A stretch of DNA of 11,185 bases from Candidatus Hodarchaeota archaeon (lineage in GTDB: Archaea > Asgardarchaeota > Heimdallarchaeia > Hodarchaeales > Hodarchaeaceae), in contig JAEOTQ010000018.1 in the NCBI GenBank assembly GCA_016839785.1, forward strand, positions 1 to 11,185. Direction: 5' to 3'. A program made the position numbers and the translations under genes. The notes below the pieces were generated by a model. That model was given only the letters and a program-made list of their open reading frames with translations, did no database searches and had not been told where the DNA came from. Shown here one piece after another: positions 954-9,796 of the stretch (positions are counted from its first letter, which is position 1; every line of letters begins with the position of its first letter).

Positions 954-2651
954 TTATTTATTCCACTGACTATCCCTGAATCCCTTTACTCTCGGTTTCT
1001 TCTGTTTTCTAGCTAATAAAAAACCAATGGAGAGGATTAATAATCCTACGACAGAAATCGAGTATCCAAAACCAGGAGTGAGTGTTATCGATCCAGTGGA
1101 AGTTGTTAAGAGAACGCTGGAAGTTGTTGAGGTTTCATTGGGGATTGGATAGGCATGCAGGTCAATAACTTTTTCCAATGCTTTCGAATTTACATCTATC
1201 ACTGAGACACTATCTGAGCGTATATTAAGACTATAAATCTTACTATAATTATTATTTGCAAATATGAAATTTGGAAAATATCCCTCCAAGGGGATAACCC
1301 GCTCTAGAAACTGTTCGGTGTTTAAGTCATAAATACTGATAAAACTTCGATCAAGATGGGCAATGTAGAGATAGTTTTCTTTGTATAAAAAGACGTCAAT
1401 TTTTGGAAAAGTCTGCAGATGAGACAACCAAGGAATTCCACTTCCTGGATCTCTAATATAGAAAAAGATTGATAGATCTAGTCCTAACCGAAAGAACTGA
1501 GCGGAATTGAAGAGAAGCTGATTCTGAATATATTCTTTAACACGACGAGATATTTCTTTGACACTCAAATTAATGTGCTTGCTAAAATTCTGCAAGGATG
1601 AAAAATTCGTAACAAGAAATGCATCTAGAATTTTGAGATCTGCAGGTGTCAAACTTCGAAATTGGAGTTTCTCAACTCTTGTTTCTAATGCAAGATTAGG
1701 TGCAGACTTTTGGAAGTTTATTTCAGCCTGGCTATGAAATATTGGCGGAGGATGGACCCATCCTTCTTTAAATCTACTTAACCCATCAAAACACCATGAA
1801 ATTATTCGTTGATCAATAGGTACAGAGTATTCAGGGCTAATTTCATTTATCAACGCATCTATCAACAAGGGTTGAGAAATTGGAATTTGGATAATACTGA
1901 ATTTCCTCCGAAAAAAATTTGCAGTATACAGCAGATACTGTGAGTATGAATCAGGAAACGGAGATAAGTGGTGGAGGAGTAGAGTTTCATATCCTAATCG
2001 TGCCATATCTATATAACGGGCAATATTGATTATATCAAGCATAGTTATCTGACTCATCCGTCGTGTGACTGTACTCAAAGATTTATTGACAAATTCAGCA
2101 ATATCATGGAAAGATGGTCCTCGAATAAATTGGGCTGGAATTAGCTCCTTCTTTGATAAAACACAAATGGCCTTAAATAGGTCAATATCTAATCTATCAA
2201 CAGGAATTGTTATATTGAGTAGAGGAGCGACAATTAATTCGACCAATTGAGAAAAATTGAGTTGTGATTCCTCCTTTTGCAAGCGATTGAGGTAGGATAT
2301 TAACATAGAGTCATCTTGCTTAATAATTTCATAAATTACAAGGTGACGAGGAATCGTAAGTACTCCTCCTCTATCTTTAACCTCCATTAATATCGACGAG
2401 ATGTTCTTTGTAAATGATTCTATCTTTTTCAAAAATCCTACTTCTTTATTTCGTTCATAGAAAGGTAGAGTATGGTTTTTCAATAGTTTTCGTGAGATTT
2501 CATCAATATCGATCAATGCTGCTTCTTTTGCCTGATCGTGTACTTCGAGCCATAATTCTACAAACTCTAACACAAATTTAGACTCTGGTGAACTATTTTG
2601 ATGTTGGATATTTCGGACTTGATTTAGGAGAGAGGATAGCTGTTTGGACAT
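954..2651 (-). CDS. Paralog A: tandem Lrp/AsnC-like HTH protein fused to a YVTN-type beta-propeller fragment, S/T linker and PGF-CTERM-like anchor (chimeric)
   Basis: Residues ~1-421 align by eye with paralogs B and C (FVLEFVELW..VH, LPFY, IDMARLGYE, FRSLTPADLKIL, QFFRLGLDLSIFF, TFPKIDVF). The remainder reads YLYIAH..SFISIYD, KIYSLN..SDSVSVID, TSTTSS.., TPGF, a TM helix and RKQKK. Confidence 0.75.
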   Translation of the reverse strand: MSKQLSSLLNQVRNIQHQNSSPESKFVLEFVELWLEVHDQAKEAALIDIDEISRKLLKNHTLPFYERNKEVGFLKKIESFTKNISSILMEVKDRGGVLTIPRHLVIYEIIKQDDSMLISYLNRLQKEESQLNFSQLVELIVAPLLNITIPVDRLDIDLFKAICVLSKKELIPAQFIRGPSFHDIAEFVNKSLSTVTRRMSQITMLDIINIARYIDMARLGYETLLLHHLSPFPDSYSQYLLYTANFFRRKFSIIQIPISQPLLIDALINEISPEYSVPIDQRIISWCFDGLSRFKEGWVHPPPIFHSQAEINFQKSAPNLALETRVEKLQFRSLTPADLKILDAFLVTNFSSLQNFSKHINLSVKEISRRVKEYIQNQLLFNSAQFFRLGLDLSIFFYIRDPGSGIPWLSHLQTFPKIDVFLYKENYLYIAHLDRSFISIYDLNTEQFLERVIPLEGYFPNFIFANNNYSKIYSLNIRSDSVSVIDVNSKALEKVIDLHAYPIPNETSTTSSVLLTTSTGSITLTPGFGYSISVVGLLILSIGFLLARKQKKPRVKGFRDSQWNK

Positions 2652-2788: not shown

Positions 2789-4228
2789 TCAATTATGATG
2801 ATACGTATCTTTTAATGAAATTCCCCATCTAAAATGATCGACCATGCTGTAGATTTTAAAATAAATCTTCACATCATAATTCTTACGGATATAGTCAACT
2901 TTTCTGGAAAAAGGTTTAATCCACTTATGTGGTAGTTTCACATATCCAAAGTAATAGTTTGGGCTCTCATCCTGTTGATAAAAGACATCTACTTTGGGAA
3001 AGGTTAGCAAATGGTTTATCCAAGGAATTTCACTGTTATTATCTGAAATGAAGAAGAACACTGATAAATCCAATCCAATATTGAAGAACTGGTATGTTTT
3101 AAAAATCAGATTTGCCTCTTGATATTCCTTCAGACGTTGGGATATTTCCATACGATTAACACTAATTGCTTTGCTTAAATGATCGTAATTTCTAAAACTT
3201 CCTTCTTGGACAAGAAAATCTAGTAGTTTGAAGTCAGCTCGAGATAATTTTCGAAAAGAGTCAAAGGCAGGACGAAGTGGGACTTCTAGATCTGGACTTG
3301 GGGTACTCACAGCCACTTGAGGTTTTGAGTTAAAGAAAGAAGGAGGGCCTGACCATAAGTCTTCCCCTGCAGATAATCCACTAATATTCCATGATGTAGT
3401 CCGGTTTACCAGTGGCTCATACATTATAGGCTGCAGTTCTTCTTGTAATACCATCTGTTCTTGAATCTGAGATGCAGGCATCTGAATCAAACTAAACGTG
3501 CCGATATCCATGTTTCCTGATAATAGTAGATTATTCCTGTATTCTTTTGGGAACTCTTCTTGATGGACTACGAGGAGAGATTCGTATCCAAGTTTTCCCA
3601 TATCAAGAAAGTGGTTCGCATGAACTAACTGCAAGAACCGGAAAACCTTCAATCTCCGAATAATAGTTCGTGTAGAAACCTTTAACAATTCCGCTAAAGA
3701 TTTGTTATCAGGATTCTTGTAAAGTAGTGCTTTTAAGGATTGGATTGATTGAAAGCCTTTTAATAATTGAATATCTACCTCATCTAAGGGAGGTACATAA
3801 TTTATTAATAAGGGAAAGATTTCTTCGAAGAGATCATCTTTTGTTTGGCTCATTAAATCCGTTTTTAGCTTCTTCAGAATACTAAAGAGGACGCTCTTTT
3901 TATGATTGGTAATTTCGTATGCGACCAGCTTTAATGGAAACATAATTCCACCACTATCACCCCATGTGAGGTACAGTGATGCGTATGAATCGATCCATCC
4001 CTCGAACTTTTGTAAATCACCCTTTCCCTTGTGGTTTTCGTAGAACGGTAATATATAAGGTGTCAGGAGCGATTTACATACATCGAGAGTATCCTCTAAA
4101 TTTGCTTTTGCAGTCACTTGGTGGATTTGATACCAGATATCTAGAAAATCTAAGACAAACTGGCCTGATTCATCCGCCCTATTTTGTCGGATAGTTTCCA
4201 ACATTTCTCGGATTGGACGCTCTGACAT
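2789..4228 (-). CDS. Paralog B: transcriptional regulator-like protein with N-terminal helical domain and two tandem Lrp/AsnC-type HTH(+RAM-like) units
   Basis: HTH1 at ~aa148-215 (LDEVDIQLL...LAELLKVSTRTIIRRLK...LDMGKLGY). HTH2 at ~aa328-387 (LSRADFKLL...LSKAISVNRMEISQRLKEY...FFNIGL). Each is followed by beta/alpha segments. Confidence 0.8.
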   Translation of the reverse strand: MSERPIREMLETIRQNRADESGQFVLDFLDIWYQIHQVTAKANLEDTLDVCKSLLTPYILPFYENHKGKGDLQKFEGWIDSYASLYLTWGDSGGIMFPLKLVAYEITNHKKSVLFSILKKLKTDLMSQTKDDLFEEIFPLLINYVPPLDEVDIQLLKGFQSIQSLKALLYKNPDNKSLAELLKVSTRTIIRRLKVFRFLQLVHANHFLDMGKLGYESLLVVHQEEFPKEYRNNLLLSGNMDIGTFSLIQMPASQIQEQMVLQEELQPIMYEPLVNRTTSWNISGLSAGEDLWSGPPSFFNSKPQVAVSTPSPDLEVPLRPAFDSFRKLSRADFKLLDFLVQEGSFRNYDHLSKAISVNRMEISQRLKEYQEANLIFKTYQFFNIGLDLSVFFFISDNNSEIPWINHLLTFPKVDVFYQQDESPNYYFGYVKLPHKWIKPFSRKVDYIRKNYDVKIYFKIYSMVDHFRWGISLKDTYHHN

Positions 4229-4276: not shown

Positions 4277-4324
4277 TTTCTCTAGAAAAACTAACGGTTT
4301 GTCTAGATAAAGTATCCGGATAAC
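4277..4324. promoter_or_regulatory. Three operator-like palindromic boxes: TTTCTCTAGAAAAA (4277-4290), TTTGTCTAGATAAA (4298-4311), AGTATCCGGATAAC (4311-4324)
   Basis: Palindromic consensus TTTNTCTAGANAAA with core spacings of 21 and 13 bp. The same spacing recurs in the spacer of pair C. Confidence 0.6.
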
Positions 4325-4370
4325 TGTTAAATGAGAAGAAAAATCGACTCAAAGTAAAATGGTGAAATTT

Positions 4371-4526
4371 ATGGACAAGAAATTAAGACTACGTGATAAA
4401 ACAAACTCTGCTGAACTCTTAGTACTAAAGATGCTTCCTCTGATATTCATGCTCCTCCTCTTCCTACTCAGCACATCCATTGGTGCTGGTATATCTGATG
4501 GGGGCCATTTACCGGGAATGAACTAA
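4371..4526 (+). CDS. Small secreted/membrane peptide precursor B, 51 aa: MDKKLRLRDKTNSAELLVLKMLPLIFMLLLFLLSTSIGAGISDGGHLPGMN
   Basis: GGTGA SD at 4361-4365, 5 nt before ATG. 21/51 ungapped identity and identical length to 6489..6644. Divergent from paralog B. Confidence 0.85.
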   Translation: MDKKLRLRDKTNSAELLVLKMLPLIFMLLLFLLSTSIGAGISDGGHLPGMN

Positions 4527-4584
4527 GATTTTTGCGTCGTTATTCAGTATATTAGATGTTCAAATTTAAAAGTTGGATAATAGA

Positions 4585-4604
4585 GAGTACATTTAGCTGT
4601 ACTC
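4585..4604 (+). terminator. Possible hairpin downstream of peptide B (GAGTACA-TTTAGC-TGTACTC)
   Basis: 7-bp perfect stem ~60 nt after the stop. A T5 tract also follows the stop at 4529-4533. Confidence 0.25.
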
Positions 4605-5014
4605 CCAAACTCTATGATTTTAGTGATTTTCTAAATTTATAGAATAAAATCCAGTCTTTTCAAAACTAATGGACATCTAGCATCCGAGATTAGGACTTAT
4701 ATCTACATTAGCTTCCCATAAATTTGGAGTTCCATTTAGCTTTTTATTAAATGAGGAGTTCAACAAGACCTCTCCATAGACAATCTATTTGAAATAAATC
4801 CTAGGTTTATTCTTTCCGATTCATTGCCTAAGTAATCAATCAGTTTTATGGTTCTAATGTTCTAAAAGAAATTTAGATTGATCAATACCAGTACATACTT
4901 CTTAGATGATTTTTCTCATCATTCTGCAATTTTTAAATCTGCTTAAGGAAAACTTTCATCATCAAGGTCGTTGTAATAGGTATCATCGTTCAGGAATCAT
5001 TTTTCTCTAAATTA

Positions 5015-5035
5015 TAAATCACCGACAAAACCCTA
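5015..5035 (+). repeat. Direct repeat copy 1 TAAATCACCGACAAAACCCTA
   Basis: 20/21 identical to 6218..6238 (first 17 nt exact). Both copies are preceded by AATCATTTTT 20-22 nt upstream. Confidence 0.75.
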
Positions 5036-5040
5036 TATCA

Positions 5041-5077
5041 AAAATTCAGTTACTTACACTAAGATCCAGTTACTTAC
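5041..5077 (+). repeat. Tandem direct repeat AA[A/G]AT[T/C]CAGTTACTTAC x2, 20-bp period
   Basis: 5041..5057 vs 5061..5077 match 15/17, with CAGTTACTTAC exact. Confidence 0.55.
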
Positions 5078-5448
5078 GAACTTCTATCCGAATTACTGAG
5101 GTCTCATCTTTTTATGAGTCGAATGGAATTTAACGCATTCAGATATAGAGATTATACTAAATTACAGAACAATTCCCAGTTATACAGATGGCAATAGAGT
5201 CCCTTTCTTCATACCTTTTCTTTATTTAAAGCATCTAGTACCCGCTTTAGCTCATTTTTTGTCCATTTCTGAGCTATTCTGCGTACTGCCTTATTTATAA
5301 TTCCCACGAGAACAATTACGGTTATGAGTTGTGGGATAGTTTTTTCACACATTTGGAGTTTTTTTCATATATATTATGACGTATCCAAGAATAATTCTCT
5401 GTTACAACTTCATTATAATGTAAAAGGGCTTTATGGGAGAGATTATGA

Positions 5449-6153
5449 TTGACTCATTCCCTTCCCTCCTCTTATTCTGCAGGTGTTTTTTCCGACCTTA
5501 AGACCAGTCGCGCTTGCCATGATATTTGCCCTTTGATGCTATGTCGAGTGATCAAGAAATATAATGGCATTCTTTTATTGAAACTATTGTTCCAAGAATA
5601 TTTTTCTCTCCCTGGAGTCCCCAGTCCTAACATCCCTTACTATACTCGTTCTGACCTTTTTTCCTTGGCAGTTAACCATTTTCGTGAGAAGCCGTCAGAA
5701 GATTCACTAGAAGAATTGGTAAGATACATTAATCAAAAGTCAGGGATGATTCTGATAATCCCCTCATCACATCCCGAGCATCGTGGTGTTCGTCCAACCA
5801 ATAGATATTGTCTCAATCCAGTAATTCTCAGAGATTTTGTCATTTTAAGGGAAAAAAGCCTGCGTTTCCCGTTGACATGTCCTTTTGGTAATGACGAAAA
5901 GGTTTTTCTCATTTTAAATTATCTCGCTGAACAGGGGAGCGCTTCAATCCAAGCCGTCCAACTACATTTCGGTTTTTGTCGCGATACAGCCTATCGCACC
6001 ATTAACCAAATGCATTTCCAACAATTGGTACGCAAAACCCATCAAAATGGAGCCAAATCCAAGCTTATCTCTCTTAACTCTGACCATTTCTTAATTAATG
6101 ACCTCTCATTTTCTGTGACAAAAAATCCCTTAATTCAGGAGAAATTAGCTTAG
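5449..6153 (+). CDS. Hypothetical protein with C-terminal winged HTH
   Basis: 234-aa ORF. ILNYLAEQGSASIQAVQLHFGFCRDTAYRTINQMHFQQLVRKTHQNGAKSKLISL fits a DeoR/MarR-like wHTH. Start codon uncertain (TTG). Confidence 0.6.
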   Translation: MTHSLPSSYSAGVFSDLKTSRACHDICPLMLCRVIKKYNGILLLKLLFQEYFSLPGVPSPNIPYYTRSDLFSLAVNHFREKPSEDSLEELVRYINQKSGMILIIPSSHPEHRGVRPTNRYCLNPVILRDFVILREKSLRFPLTCPFGNDEKVFLILNYLAEQGSASIQAVQLHFGFCRDTAYRTINQMHFQQLVRKTHQNGAKSKLISLNSDHFLINDLSFSVTKNPLIQEKLA

Positions 6154-6217
6154 ATAATTATTTCTTAGCTTTAACATGAGTGAATGATGAGGAAAAATCA
6201 TTTTTTTCCGCTTTTTG

Positions 6218-6238
6218 TAAATCACCGACAAAACACTA
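6218..6238 (+). repeat. Direct repeat copy 2 TAAATCACCGACAAAACACTA
   Basis: Matches 5015..5035. An inverted partial copy (GTGTTTCGTCGG, 11/12) lies at 6328..6339. Confidence 0.75.
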
Positions 6239-6488
6239 GTTCGAAGATGTGTAGTGTAAGATCAGTATGAGAATATTACCTTTCTTATCATGTACCAGAT
6301 TTACTCGAAAAGTAGTAAATAATTTCTGTGTTTCGTCGGGAAATGGGCATTTTGAGTTGTCAAATTAACAATTGTTAACAGAAAGAAACTTGTTACTATT
6401 TAAAGTCAACAGAAAATCGTGTAATAAATCTGTATCAGAATTCATGATTAGGATCCTAAATTTTACTTATTAGGCTCTTATTTCAATT

Positions 6489-6644
6489 TCAACATGTAGG
6501 AGGAGCAGCACCACCGCTGGGAGCGCCTGATCCTATGACAAAGGACATTACATAGAGTAATAGCAGAAACAGGATAGGTAACATCTTCCACAAGGTAATA
6601 TCTACATTTCCAGAGATTTTTCGTGTTCTTAATTTCTTTTCCAT
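6489..6644 (-). CDS. Small secreted/membrane peptide precursor C, 51 aa: MEKKLRTRKISGNVDITLWKMLPILFLLLLYVMSFVIGSGAPSGGAAPPTC
   Basis: GGTGA SD (6651-6655, minus strand) 6 nt before ATG. Paralogous to 4371..4526. Divergent from paralog C. Confidence 0.85.
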   Translation of the reverse strand: MEKKLRTRKISGNVDITLWKMLPILFLLLLYVMSFVIGSGAPSGGAAPPTC

Positions 6645-6684
6645 TTATTTTCACCATTTAATTCTTAGATTCGTTATTTAGAGA

Positions 6685-6732
6685 GATACCCGAAGATTTT
6701 TACTAGATAAATCATTCGAGTTTCCGATCAAA
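6685..6732. promoter_or_regulatory. Operator-like boxes of pair C (minus strand: TTTGATCGGAAACT, TTTATCTAGTAAAA, AATCTTCGGGTATC)
   Basis: Cores at 6723-6728, 6702-6707 and 6689-6694 give the same 21/13-bp spacing as pair B. A 32-nt block is 22/32 identical to 4296..4327. Confidence 0.55.
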
Positions 6733-6744
6733 TATGACCCTAAT

Positions 6745-6758
6745 CAAAGGGTTTAAAT
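6745..6758 (+). promoter_or_regulatory. Putative BRE/TATA of paralog C (CAAAGG-GTTTAAAT)
   Basis: TATA 28-35 nt upstream of ATG 6786 with no SD, so probably leaderless. Confidence 0.55.
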
Positions 6759-6785
6759 GTTGTTATAGTTACACTAGCTCTTATA

Positions 6786-8228
6786 ATGGTTCCTTCCCCC
6801 CAACAGCAGCTAGACTTCAATCAGATCCGACAAAATACTGTTGGTCAACATGTGGAGCCGTTAGTCCTAGATTTCTTAGAAATCTGGTGGAATATTCATT
6901 CTGACGCTGCATCTTTATCTATGAAAGATATTCCTGAGTATGCTAGTAGTCTGCTTCAATCCTTTACGCTACCCCTGTATAATCAATATAAGAACACGAA
7001 GCTCTTCCATAAGTATGATGCCTGGATCAAGGATTTTTCTGCCCTTGGAATCTCTTGGCGTAATGGGGTAATCATGTTCCCTTTACGCTTGATCACATAC
7101 GAAGTTAATTCCCATCAGGACCAATTACTTGAGTATTACATCAATCGCCTACAAACAGGTCAATTACAAGGCACACAAAAGGAACTATTTGATTTCCTCT
7201 TTCCCCGCCTCATTATTGCCTCGGTTCCTTTGAAATCAGTTGATATTTTTCTTATGAAATCATTACTTGAAGCTGATCAGGGGAATTTTAATTATTTTAA
7301 AGGCTTAGAATTGATTGCCCAGGCTAAGCTCACAAATACATCCGTTCGTACTGTCAAGCGTCGAATGAAGCTTCTCAATTTCTCCCAAATCCCGATTCCT
7401 GTCTATTTCTTAGATATGGCTGCATTGGGATATGAGACTTACATAATTTCTCATTTCAATAATATTCCCGAAAAAATTTCACCGTGGGTATTACATTCTA
7501 TTGATTTAACGATCAGTCAATTCAGTCTCCTTCAATTACCTTTAAGAAATCCCCGCCTTTATAAGAACGTCGAGGATCAGTTGGAACCTCTAATATTTTC
7601 CCCGTTATCCGAAAGGATTCATTCCTGGAATTTATCAGGATTAGATGAGGGAAAAGATGCTTGGAAGACTCCACCCTCTTTTGTACATACCTATCCTACG
7701 AGGGATTTGGCTACTCCCTCCCCACATCTCAAGATGTTGCTTCAACCCCAATTTGATCGATTTCGTGACCTAACTTCCCCTGATATCAAACTCATCGAAT
7801 TTATCACTACACAAGGCACCGTTTCTAGTGTTAAGAAGCTCAGTCGGATTCTAAGAATGACCGTGCCTGATATTACAGAAAAAATGAAAGAATTTCAGCA
7901 GCAAAGACTGATTCTTCGGACTATCCAATTCTTCAATATTGGTCTTGATCTGAGTTTATTTTTCTTTATTTCTGCTCCAAAAAGCGTCGACATCGACTGG
8001 GCGACTTTATTCACAACTTTTGCTAAAGTAGATGTTTTTTACGATACTTCTACTGACGTAGATCTGTATTTTGGCTTTTTAAAACTACCTGTTAAATTCT
8101 ATAAAGATTTCACTCAAAAGGTCGCTGCCGTCAAGAAAGAATTCCCTGATATTAAATTTTATTATACTGTTGAACCCGCTGATATTACTCGCTGGAACCT
8201 TTCTCTTTCTGATACGTATAGTGGCTAA
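6786..8228 (+). CDS. Paralog C: tandem Lrp/AsnC-like HTH regulator-like protein
   Basis: Colinear with paralog B over its full length: VLDFLxIWxxIH, IMFPLxLxxYE, FLDMxxLGYE, SWNxSGLxxGxDxWxxPPSF, QFFNIGLDLSxFFFIS, YFGxxKLP, RWxxSLxDTY. Confidence 0.8.
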   Translation: MVPSPQQQLDFNQIRQNTVGQHVEPLVLDFLEIWWNIHSDAASLSMKDIPEYASSLLQSFTLPLYNQYKNTKLFHKYDAWIKDFSALGISWRNGVIMFPLRLITYEVNSHQDQLLEYYINRLQTGQLQGTQKELFDFLFPRLIIASVPLKSVDIFLMKSLLEADQGNFNYFKGLELIAQAKLTNTSVRTVKRRMKLLNFSQIPIPVYFLDMAALGYETYIISHFNNIPEKISPWVLHSIDLTISQFSLLQLPLRNPRLYKNVEDQLEPLIFSPLSERIHSWNLSGLDEGKDAWKTPPSFVHTYPTRDLATPSPHLKMLLQPQFDRFRDLTSPDIKLIEFITTQGTVSSVKKLSRILRMTVPDITEKMKEFQQQRLILRTIQFFNIGLDLSLFFFISAPKSVDIDWATLFTTFAKVDVFYDTSTDVDLYFGFLKLPVKFYKDFTQKVAAVKKEFPDIKFYYTVEPADITRWNLSLSDTYSG

Positions 8229-8389: not shown

Positions 8390-9796
8390 ATGAGTGATGA
8401 ATTAAAACCTGAACCGATCGAATGGAGTATATCTCTTCGAAATAAAATAACTTTTTCTTTGGGTGAAATCGGAGATGGAGTAGCTTATCAAACATTTTCA
8501 TTTCTGATCTTCACATTTTATTTTACGGTAGTTCGGTTACCAGTCTTATGGATAAGTGGAGGATTTATCATCTGGTCTTTCTGGAATGCAGTTAATGACC
8601 CTCTCATTGGGATCTTATCTGATAAAACGCATACTCGCTGGGGTCGACGTTTTCCTTGGATGATGGGAGCCACCATTCCCCTTGCAATTGTAATGGTACT
8701 ATTATTCCTTCCTCCTATGTCATCTGATACTGTTAATTTTGCTTATTTTCTCTTCATCTTATTTCTCTTTGATACCGTTTATACAGCTTTTAACCTCAAT
8801 TATAATGCAATGTGGTCTGAAATGTTTCTTTCGACTAAGGATCGGAGTGAAGTTGGCCAAATGCGAGGAATTTTCGTTATTATTGCATTAGTTTTTGCAT
8901 TCCTCCTTCCTACCATTCTCATTGAAGATTTGACAAATCAGTTTGGCTACGATTATACTCAGAGTCAATATATTCTAGTCGGGATTCTGGCAGCTATTAT
9001 CATTGTCCTTTCGTATTCCATCGTCTTAAAATGGGGAGCAAAAGAGCGAAAAGAATTTATCAAAGACTCAGCGACGGCCCCCTCCTACATGGAAGCACTA
9101 CGATATACATTCAAGAATAAGGCCTTTCGATTCTTTGCGATAGCAGCTTTAGCTACTTGGATCTGTAATGGAATACTTCCAACCGTCATTCCTCTTTTTG
9201 CCACTTATGCTCTGAACATAGCTGAGGAAGATTCAATCCTGATTGGTGTTTTACTTCTTGTAGGATTCCTTGTAGGAGCCATATCCATCCCTTTTTGGAC
9301 AAAGATTCGCCAAACACGAGGTGCACGTACTACTGGTATGCTGGTTTTCATTAGCTGGGCAATAGGTCTACTTATTTTCATGTGGTCTTTTGATCTAGTG
9401 TCAGGTCTAGTAACAATGGCTTTAGTGGGAATTGGGCTTGGGGGAAGTATTTATTTTTATGACCAGATTATTGCTGAAATTATTGACGATGATGAGCTTC
9501 GGTATGGCACACGTCGCGCTGGGGGTTATTATGGGGCGATTTCATTCGTTATTCGCCTCTCTGGAGTAGTAAATTTCTTTATTATTGGAATCGTATTTTC
9601 TGGTACAGAATGGTCTAAGTTTACCCCAAACCCAAGTGTAGATGTGATTTGGGGTCTTCGGTTTCTGATAGGTATTTTTCCCGCACTAGTTCTCATACTA
9701 GGCTTGATAAGTCTGTATTTCTATCCTATCCATGGCGAATATCTAGAGAAAATGAGGAGTAGTGTTACAGAAGTTCATATTAAGAAACGAGAGTAA
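8390..9796 (+). CDS. MFS transporter, GPH (MelB/MFS_2-like) cation symporter family
   Basis: WNAVNDPLIGILSDKTHTRWGRRFPW motif, IIAEIIDDDELRYGTRRAGGYYG motif and about 12 hydrophobic segments. Confidence 0.92.
   Translation: MSDELKPEPIEWSISLRNKITFSLGEIGDGVAYQTFSFLIFTFYFTVVRLPVLWISGGFIIWSFWNAVNDPLIGILSDKTHTRWGRRFPWMMGATIPLAIVMVLLFLPPMSSDTVNFAYFLFILFLFDTVYTAFNLNYNAMWSEMFLSTKDRSEVGQMRGIFVIIALVFAFLLPTILIEDLTNQFGYDYTQSQYILVGILAAIIIVLSYSIVLKWGAKERKEFIKDSATAPSYMEALRYTFKNKAFRFFAIAALATWICNGILPTVIPLFATYALNIAEEDSILIGVLLLVGFLVGAISIPFWTKIRQTRGARTTGMLVFISWAIGLLIFMWSFDLVSGLVTMALVGIGLGGSIYFYDQIIAEIIDDDELRYGTRRAGGYYGAISFVIRLSGVVNFFIIGIVFSGTEWSKFTPNPSVDVIWGLRFLIGIFPALVLILGLISLYFYPIHGEYLEKMRSSVTEVHIKKRE

Follow-up and report, generated by a model that had tools for sequence, protein, structure and literature searches.

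The contig JAEOTQ010000018.1 of a Candidatus Hodarchaeota archaeon (order Hodarchaeales, in the Heimdall group of Asgard archaea; GenBank assembly GCA_016839785.1; 4.04 Mb, 248 contigs, approximately 35% G+C) carries two copies of a small cassette, in which a gene for a peptide of 51 amino acids (aa) lies divergent from a gene for a regulator of about 480 aa. The window, meaning the whole stretch of DNA that was analyzed, is this one contig at its full length of 11,185 nucleotides (nt). An original prediction, made from the letters of the window, read the two peptides as precursors with a conserved leader and a variable C-terminal tail. The gene family and its pairing with the regulator are well supported, and the function proposed below is inferred. 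The genes of the two cassettes and their ribosome-binding sites are as follows.

4371-4526, plus strand: open reading frame (ORF) of peptide 1, 51 aa, inside a longer ORF of 55 aa whose start is at 4359
6489-6644, minus strand: ORF of peptide 2, 51 aa
2789-4228, minus strand: ORF of regulator paralog 1, 479 aa, divergent from peptide 1
6786-8228, plus strand: regulator paralog 2, 480 aa; shares 38% identity with paralog 1 and lies divergent from peptide 2
4361-4365, plus strand: Shine-Dalgarno core GGTGA of peptide 1, 5 nt before the ATG
6651-6655, minus strand: Shine-Dalgarno core GGTGA of peptide 2, 6 nt before the ATG

Two small genes and their divergent regulators

Peptides 1 and 2 are 44% identical (21/48 residues, E 7e-9 in BLASTP). 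This similarity is far above chance, and evidently neither is a chance ORF. Upstream of both start codons lies the common sequence AAATGGTGAAA, the GGTGA core of which is placed 5-6 nt before the ATG. For peptide 1, this spacing favors the start at 4371 over the upstream ATG at 4359. A Shine-Dalgarno-like core is also found no more than 18 nt upstream of 19/27 homologs of subfamily A, to which both window copies belong, and of 8/13 homologs of subfamily B. In four genomes (L055, L057, L060, and L061), TTG seems to be the start codon of the subfamily-B gene and follows a Shine-Dalgarno core, GGAGG or GAGGTG, at a distance of 8-9 nt; the copy on contig C47 of the source genome has an ATG after GGAGG.

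Selection was measured in one orthogroup of seven species, with six equal-length copies compared in 15 pairs. In leader codons 2-39, the proportion of synonymous differences (pS) is 0.45 and that of nonsynonymous differences (pN) is 0.055. The ratio is 0.12, and the reading frame is therefore under purifying selection. In tail codons 40-50 of the same orthogroup, pN/pS is 0.77. A search of sequencing reads returned six runs from three studies, of which X1 and X2, labeled as marine sediment metagenome, contain fractions of 0.76 and 0.58 of the words sampled from the window; the source sample may be among them. A near-identical contig in run X1 differs from the peptide 2 leader at 6525 and 6585, and both changes are synonymous and at third codon positions, as worked out by hand from the coordinates. 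The sole RNA run among the four that were mapped (X6) gave short contigs at 6151-6385 and 6680-6903 with a depth of 2; neither lies on a peptide ORF, which indicates neither expression nor silence. The peptides had no match above the cut-off in Pfam or NCBIfam. In the protein atlas, the best score of peptide 1 was 0.76, to unnamed clusters and below the counting level. Scans of the window for Rfam families and tRNAs gave no hits.

Seven copies of the peptide gene are present in the source genome: two in the window, two on contig C97, and one each on C234, C47, and C23. All seven are divergent from a regulator paralog of about 480 aa. A profile built from six of the copies gave significant matches (E <= 1.4e-6) in 20/21 other genomes of the same genus, and the genome that lacked one (G009) is 80% complete. 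Counted at E <= 1, each genome of the genus has 2-9 matches. Outside the genus, the best E value of the profile was at least 0.026 among 19 genomes from four other families of the class.

The pairing extends to these homologs. The peptide is the divergent neighbor of a regulator homolog in 21/21 of the best loci. Among 20 further matches, 15 are divergent and one is co-oriented; one copy is truncated with no regulator in reach (L059), one is cut by the contig end (L069), and two weak matches (L067 and L068) have no regulator as a neighbor. Divergent pairing thus holds in 36/41 of these further loci. A 489-aa ORF beside L067 was considered as a regulator and ruled out by an hhalign probability of 0.14%.

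A second profile, made of 39 peptides, was searched against a library of 1.84 billion representative proteins and found 52 matches at E <= 1e-3, 16 of them at E <= 1e-10. Since 51 of the 52 representatives are 41-81 aa long, the search gave no sign of a fusion between the peptide and a larger protein. The exception (P0088, 219 aa, with repeated matches) looks unrelated. A regulator profile reached beyond the genus to 2/2 genomes of a second family of the order, but to 0/3 genomes from three other families. One of the two hits (L071 in G022:C539, E 7.9e-12), from a different genus of the order, is a distant homolog of the regulator and has a divergent 68-aa ORF at 2869-3075 on the plus strand; the ORF encodes a single hydrophobic helix and a tail that contains proline. 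This layout, a single case, hints that the cassette arrangement is older than the detectable peptide family.

Over 32 cassettes, the distances between peptides correlate with those between regulators (Mantel r: leader 0.81, tail 0.62). The correlation speaks for co-inheritance only, in that the cassette appears to duplicate and diverge as a unit, and it is not evidence of binding. Judged by these comparisons, both 51-residue genes are real members of a lineage-restricted family of small proteins in Hodarchaeales. The cassette is a clean example of a conserved small-protein gene with no family annotation.

Signal-peptide-like anatomy of the family

The peptides can be divided into the following parts.

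4371-4430, plus strand: n-region of peptide 1, aa 1-20; basic and predicted to be cytoplasmic; R6 kept in 36/39 and K20 in 32/39 homologs
4431-4469, plus strand: hydrophobic core of peptide 1, aa 21-33 (13 aa); Pro23 nearly invariant (37/39)
4470-4490, plus strand: polar c-region of peptide 1, aa 34-40, STSIGAG; small residues at -3 (G38) and -1 (G40) of a putative type I signal peptidase site
4491-4526, plus strand: tail of peptide 1, aa 41-51 (11 aa), and stop codon; the part that would be exposed or released in the proposed model
6489-6524, minus strand: tail of peptide 2, aa 41-51 (11 aa), and stop codon, from the ORF reading and homolog alignment
6525-6644, minus strand: leader of peptide 2, aa 1-40 (n-region, 13-aa core, and c-region up to IGSG), from homolog alignment

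The family was described from 83 distinct sequences, that is, 39 from the loci and 51 library representatives with duplicates merged. A few rows (for example, P0039 and P0087) are mis-parsed, so the medians given for the n-region, the charge, and the uncharged stretch are approximate. Total length ranges from 41 to 81 aa with a median of 51, and the pre-peptides of the cassettes have 47-56 aa. With a median length of 20 aa, the n-region carries a net charge of +4 (median; minimum +1), which is the positive charge expected of a Sec signal. R8 is conserved in 32/39 homologs, in addition to R6, K20, and Pro23. The hydrophobic core of 13 aa is followed by seven polar or small positions that are rich in S/A/T from -7 to -4, as in the h- and c-regions of such signals. 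Position -7 is S/A/T in 58/83 sequences. In 18/83 it is Q/K/N, and the hydrophobic run is therefore shortened to 13 residues. The median length of the uncharged stretch is 20 residues.

Small residues occupy the two positions that signal peptidases recognize. Position -3 is G in 65/83 and A in 8/83 sequences, and G/A/S/T together account for 79/83. Position -1 is A in 60/83, G in 13/83, and S in 6/83, with A/G/S/T in 81/83. Both positions are G/A/S in 72/83 sequences. Downstream of the site, +1 is D in 35/83 and Pro in just 4/83, and +2 is Pro in 50/83. Putative signal peptides of peptide-binding proteins of the source genome have similar h- and c-regions and short n-regions, as judged by eye from a few examples. 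A Tat signal was set aside on reading the alignments: the R-x-R precedes the core by about 12 residues and is not a twin arginine. By its residue pattern, the anatomy of the family is that of a signal peptide.

The tail has 9-15 aa with a median of 11, and 10-12 aa in 63/83 sequences. Its median net charge is -1, it keeps a G-P or D-P, and it ends in Asp in 30/83. In subfamily A, the tail is rich in Gly/Ala/Ser, contains G-P, and often ends with a hydrophobic residue and Asp. In subfamily B, it reads G-x-A-D-P-T and then a run of prolines. When closely related cassettes are compared, the tail again varies more than the leader (p-distance 0.44 against 0.24).

These data bear on several details of the original prediction. 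The motifs that it listed (M[DE]KKLRxR, KMLP..F.LLL, IG[A/S]G, and 11-aa tails with GG..P) are all present in both ORFs, except that the Ser, which was placed two residues after the LLL run, is actually three on, at aa 34. The proposed division into a conserved leader and a variable tail is borne out by both pN/pS and p-distance. Invariant or absent tails had been named in advance as grounds for rejecting the idea, and the tails do vary. Cleavage after IG[A/S]G is plausible. The motif is a family-wide small-x-small site that leaves a tail of 9-15 aa, and an 11-mer product is therefore a reasonable prediction. The same cannot be said of a second cut that would release hexapeptides after a conserved GG. 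The position reads G (28/38) and then P (25/39), i.e., G-P or D-P, and the hexapeptide idea fails because the "conserved GG" is not conserved. Similarly, no C39 or ABC gene of the kind that accompanies double-glycine leaders was found in the window or in the sampled neighborhoods, for which 10 neighbor proteins of one locus were scanned.

The regulator, the control region, and the neighborhood

The regulator models as a fused double Lrp/AsnC unit preceded by an N-domain with no clear fold match. An AlphaFold2 model of regulator 1, made from 34 homologs, reached a predicted local distance difference test score (pLDDT) of 89.1 and a predicted template modeling score (pTM) of 0.85. It contains a helical N-domain (1-142), an HTH (150-199) with a RAM-like domain (202-280), and a second HTH (330-371) with a second RAM-like domain (375-459). 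Foldseek ranked the fused double Lrp/AsnC protein NirDL first (4czc and 4ch7; E 1.3e-7), followed by many single Lrp/AsnC regulators, whose structures match the units of the regulator with target-normalized TM-scores of about 0.6-0.68. At the level of fold, the HTH and RAM pair of the Lrp/AsnC family is thus found twice per chain. Sequence families are less clear. Pfam HTH matches are mostly sub-threshold, and only paralog 3 passes (HTH_24, 23.4 vs 21.9 bits). AsnC_trans_reg is not among the Pfam hits listed for the window proteins. The siroheme decarboxylase family is not reached (NF040708 AhbA, 15.5 bits vs a cut-off of 140), and the likeness to it is one of fold alone.

The N-domain folded alone has a pLDDT of 87.6. 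Foldseek gave no match for it at E <= 0.001 (E > 0.6), and the best VIA wide hits, with Z up to 4.8, are helical proteins; this is no proof of a new fold. No tetratricopeptide repeat (TPR) protein, the receptor type of RRNPP systems, stands out among the matches, and ComR (5fd4_B, Z 4.0) appears among unrelated helical rows. A word-indexed search found 37 homologs of the regulator. Their source names are "hypothetical protein" or, from the Joint Genome Institute (JGI), "DNA-binding Lrp family transcriptional regulator", and the named organisms are metagenome-assembled genomes of Hodarchaeales, Heimdallarchaeota, or Promethearchaeota. The domains of the regulator are under even constraint, with pN/pS of 0.18-0.30. 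Complex prediction of regulator 1 with peptide 1, run with two alignments, gave a score of 0.02 and a mark of 0.32, which is no evidence either way.

A further regulator gene of the window has a different form.

954-2651, minus strand: third regulator paralog, 565 aa, with no peptide partner and an unrelated C-terminal extension

The extension of about 90 aa contains a sub-threshold YVTN beta-propeller repeat (25.3 vs 27.85 bits), a stretch rich in Thr/Ser, and a hydrophobic helix, and its end is basic. It resembles a surface-protein tail that has been joined to a cytoplasmic regulator. The paralog could be genuine and membrane-tethered, or it could have arisen by gene fusion or by an error of assembly. 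A PGF-CTERM-like label for this C-terminus was dropped, as no such model is among the NCBIfam hits. Elsewhere in the source genome (G000:C234:7826-13970), three regulator paralogs stand in tandem with no peptide gene. The third of them looks like a broken copy, as it is split between two frames (12547-13788 and 13791-13970).

The divergent intergenic region of regulator 1 and peptide 1 is 142 nt long. Three boxes lie in the regions between the peptide and regulator genes.

4277-4318, no strand assigned: two tandem 21-nt boxes with a TCTAGA core, repeat family D1; candidate operator sites
6698-6718, no strand assigned: third TCTAGA-type box, in the intergenic region of peptide 2 and regulator 2; D1, with 76% identity to the reference copy

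The pattern CTAGA-N6-9-TCCG occurs upstream of 19/27 subfamily-A peptide genes, compared with 1.36 expected from shuffles, and upstream of 2/13 subfamily-B genes (0.7 expected). In orthologs, a TATA-like TTTAWAW lies just upstream of the TCTAGA-type box. The boxes are therefore candidate operator sites, to which the Lrp-type regulator would bind. In L029, L030, L033, L034, L035, L038, and L051, the 120 nt upstream of the peptide gene also contain a species-specific inverted repeat of 6-12 bp at the same place, between the highly conserved TATA and TCTAGA box and a conserved A-rich Shine-Dalgarno region. This repeat could be an operator or a hairpin of the 5' untranslated region; RNAalifold support for a hairpin is weak (-3.47 kcal/mol, covariation term +0.27).

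Only the regulator and the peptide travel together in the compared neighborhoods. In one orthogroup (L072-L077 in G010, G008, G007, G012, G003, and G016; about 20 kb each), the cassette lies between two sets of genes. One flank is a conserved nine-gene block; two of its genes encode M16 (insulinase-type) peptidases, and five encode proteins that belong to no Pfam family. The other contains an Mrp/NUBPL ATPase, an MFS_2 transporter, and a DUF362 gene. In L077 (G016), the cassette is inverted inside the same flanks, and the flanking genes are therefore not operon partners. The cassettes on C97, C234, C47, and C23 have different neighbors. In the window, an MFS_2 gene follows regulator 2 (8390-9796).

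The source genome also has one match to an archaeal type I signal peptidase (71.5 bits vs a cut-off of 51.85) and 14 matches to Opp/Dpp-type binding proteins, some of which are pieces of one frame. The parts for cutting and re-import therefore exist, though such genes are common and say little.

Other features of the window lie outside the two cassettes. The segment between the peptide genes (4527-6488) occurs once in the genome. A 34-nt direct repeat (5012-5045 and 6215-6248; 82% identical, with an exact 16-nt core, 1203 nt apart) brackets a 47-aa ORF with one hydrophobic helix (5209-5352, minus strand) and a 234-aa ORF with a weak DeoR/MobC/Csa3-like HTH (5449-6153, plus strand). The segment may be a small element inserted between two cassettes. 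At the start of the contig, two small overlapping ORFs of 92 and 89 aa lie at 316-842 on the plus strand, the second of which matches DUF2283 (E 5.7e-10).

Possible function and related systems

The explanation we favor, tentatively and at slightly less than even confidence, is that the peptide is a regulator-linked precursor that is exported by Sec and cut by signal peptidase, and that its tail of 9-15 aa acts outside the cell. In this two-gene cassette of Hodarchaeales, the cytoplasmic double-Lrp/AsnC regulator and the divergent pre-peptide gene would use a common control region of about 140 nt. The pre-peptide would insert N-in/C-out into the membrane, with the basic n-region of about 20 aa remaining in the cytoplasm. 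Type I signal peptidase would then cut after the G-x-A/G site and free a Gly/Pro-rich peptide of 9-15 aa, which would be 11 aa for both window copies. The freed peptide would be a paralog-specific signal outside the cell. The adjacent regulator would control the peptide gene and would perhaps sense the re-imported peptide. The tail counts in favor of this explanation, as it is variable yet length-constrained, keeps G-P, and frequently ends in Asp. Further points in its favor are the purifying selection on the gene, the divergent pairing, the signal-peptide-like anatomy, the signal peptidase and binding-protein matches of the source genome, the fold of the regulator, and the operator-like boxes.

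Several observations weigh against it. The n-region is longer than usual for a Sec signal and is unusually conserved, and the conservation of the hydrophobic core extends to single residues (Pro23 in 37/39, with K20 beside it in 32/39). The leader, with pN/pS of 0.12, is under tighter constraint than any regulator domain (0.18-0.30), which suggests a specific function of the leader itself. The 20-residue median of the uncharged stretch means that it could span the membrane uncut. The tails of subfamily B are rather uniform, unlike those of specificity-determining pheromones. A fast-evolving domain, as would be expected of a receptor that diversifies along with the fast tail, was sought across the domains of the regulator, and none was found. 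In the source genome, 12 regulator matches are located at 11 loci, and 4/11 of these have no peptide gene. No exporter, protease, or receptor gene is consistently linked to the cassette in the compared neighborhoods.

Conservation of the leader beyond the need of a generic signal keeps alive the main rival, in which the peptide is an uncleaved bitopic membrane microprotein, N-in/C-out, with a functional N-terminus and helix. Such a microprotein could anchor the adjacent regulator to the membrane or modulate it there, or it could modulate another membrane protein; its outside tail would be loosely constrained. We take this possibility seriously, at clearly less than even confidence. The n-region and helix are indeed the most constrained part of the peptide, Pro23, K20, R6, and R8 are nearly invariant, and an uncharged segment with a median of 20 residues suits a transmembrane helix. 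The peptide also comes with a regulator whose N-domain is specific to the family and has no clear fold match, and no export or import gene is linked to the cassette in the compared neighborhoods. However, Q/K/N at -7 in 18/83 sequences leaves a 13-aa core followed by a 6-aa polar and small segment, which is typical of cleaved signals and makes a poor stable helix. The rule of small residues at -3 and -1 holds in 72/83, and a tail held to 9-15 aa with a conserved G-P or D-P is not free to drift.

Two other rivals take the peptide to be an effector or a modified product. A small membrane-active toxin, or a secreted antimicrobial (bacteriocin-like) peptide, under control of the neighboring regulator would agree with the small size and hydrophobicity, with the fast evolution of the tail, and with a multi-copy, lineage-restricted family whose copies cluster on contigs. 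We consider it improbable. The Gly/Pro-rich tails, with a median net charge of -1, are neither cationic nor amphipathic; no immunity, transporter, or antitoxin-like gene is consistently adjacent in the window and the compared neighborhoods; and we know of no antitoxin type that resembles a double-Lrp regulator of about 480 aa. The precursor of a ribosomally synthesized and post-translationally modified peptide (RiPP) was also among the original proposals. Its leader would be recognized by modifying enzymes, and its variable core would be modified and released. The layout of a conserved leader and a variable C-terminal core fits, and two M16 peptidase genes lie 3-6 kb downstream, in one orthogroup only. 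No modifying enzyme family was found in the window or in common to the neighborhoods, which differ between cassettes of one genome and, in L077, enclose an inverted cassette within the same flanks. A membrane-type hydrophobic core is unusual in RiPP leaders, and this rival is very improbable. The remaining probability falls to some explanation outside those considered here.

A bolder form of the export explanation is that Hodarchaeales run gene-encoded peptide signaling, in which the secreted 9-15-aa Gly/Pro-rich peptide of each paralogous cassette is read by its own double-Lrp regulator, and the RAM domains or the N-domain have been turned from amino-acid to peptide sensing. Taken as a whole, this proposal is rather unlikely on present evidence. 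The peptide family may nevertheless be an archaeal peptide signal. In our literature search, from which subscription journals were outside coverage, nothing was found on this peptide family, on the regulator architecture, or on peptide signaling in Asgard archaea. Little is known of archaeal cell-cell communication and quorum sensing, according to PMC12240190. That paper lists a carboxylated acyl-homoserine lactone in a methanogen, and it characterizes a Haloferax signal that resists proteinase K and that its authors conclude to be a small molecule.

If the proposal is true, Asgard archaea would have a peptide signal that is encoded by a gene and served by its own regulator, which would be a new kind of archaeal signaling. 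It would be, as far as our searches show, the first ribosomal-peptide system of cell-cell communication known from Archaea. Its parts would be unrelated to the RRNPP receptors of bacteria, and its hosts are among the closest known archaeal relatives of eukaryotes. Even if the peptide is an uncleaved microprotein, the cassette would be a new regulatory module, combining a membrane microprotein with a new double-Lrp architecture, in the lineage closest to eukaryotes. A synthetic 11-mer and the soluble regulator with its predicted operator would form a tractable pair for testing.

The cassette can be compared with several known systems. MgrB, which acts on PhoQ, is an example of a small single-pass membrane protein that modulates a regulator. 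Proteins of this type resemble the Hodarchaeales peptide in their length of about 50 aa, in having one hydrophobic helix that is N-in by the positive-inside rule, and in their linkage to a regulatory system. However, they act on membrane sensor kinases, and the regulator here has no membrane segment. Furthermore, conservation of the small-x-small site and the bounded length of the tail suggest that the peptide is processed.

The known ligands of the Lrp/AsnC family are amino acids and not peptides. The regulator shares with NirDL, one of the NirDL/AhbAB siroheme decarboxylases, the presence of HTH and RAM alpha/beta units twice in one chain. It differs from NirDL and from the Lrp/AsnC regulators by the additional helical N-terminal domain of 142 aa, and it has no heme-pathway context. 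Divergent transcription from a regulated neighbor is common for Lrp/AsnC genes (PMC8707732).

The RRNPP systems of Firmicutes and phages (Rap/Phr, PlcR/PapR, NprR/NprX, and AimR/AimP) carry out peptide signaling (PMC7564271 and PMC4970707). In these systems, as in the cassette, the gene for a cytoplasmic regulator adjoins a pre-peptide gene of about 40-55 aa. Their pre-peptides consist of a Sec-type signal peptide and a short C-terminal part that becomes the signal, and, as in Hodarchaeales, many paralogous cassettes with diverging peptides are present per genome. The regulator here is not a TPR protein; it is a double Lrp/AsnC protein with an N-domain of unrecognized fold. With the receptor fold of RRNPP lacking, the Hodarchaeales cassette is not an RRNPP member. 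It also differs in its archaeal host, in its conserved n-region of about 20 aa, and in a gene order that is divergent and not co-oriented.

In the Rgg/SHP systems of streptococci, a small peptide gene is divergent from the regulator gene with a common control region. This is the arrangement seen in Hodarchaeales. Secretion, maturation, and re-import of the peptide are described for Rgg/SHP in PMC7564271. Unlike the Hodarchaeales peptides, SHPs are shorter and remain hydrophobic up to the C-terminus. Their maturation depends on a membrane protease and their export on PptAB, and not on a signal-peptidase-type site. Rgg has a TPR-like fold, and none of these differing parts of Rgg/SHP was seen here. 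The RRNPP and Rgg/SHP cassettes are the nearest systems in working logic.

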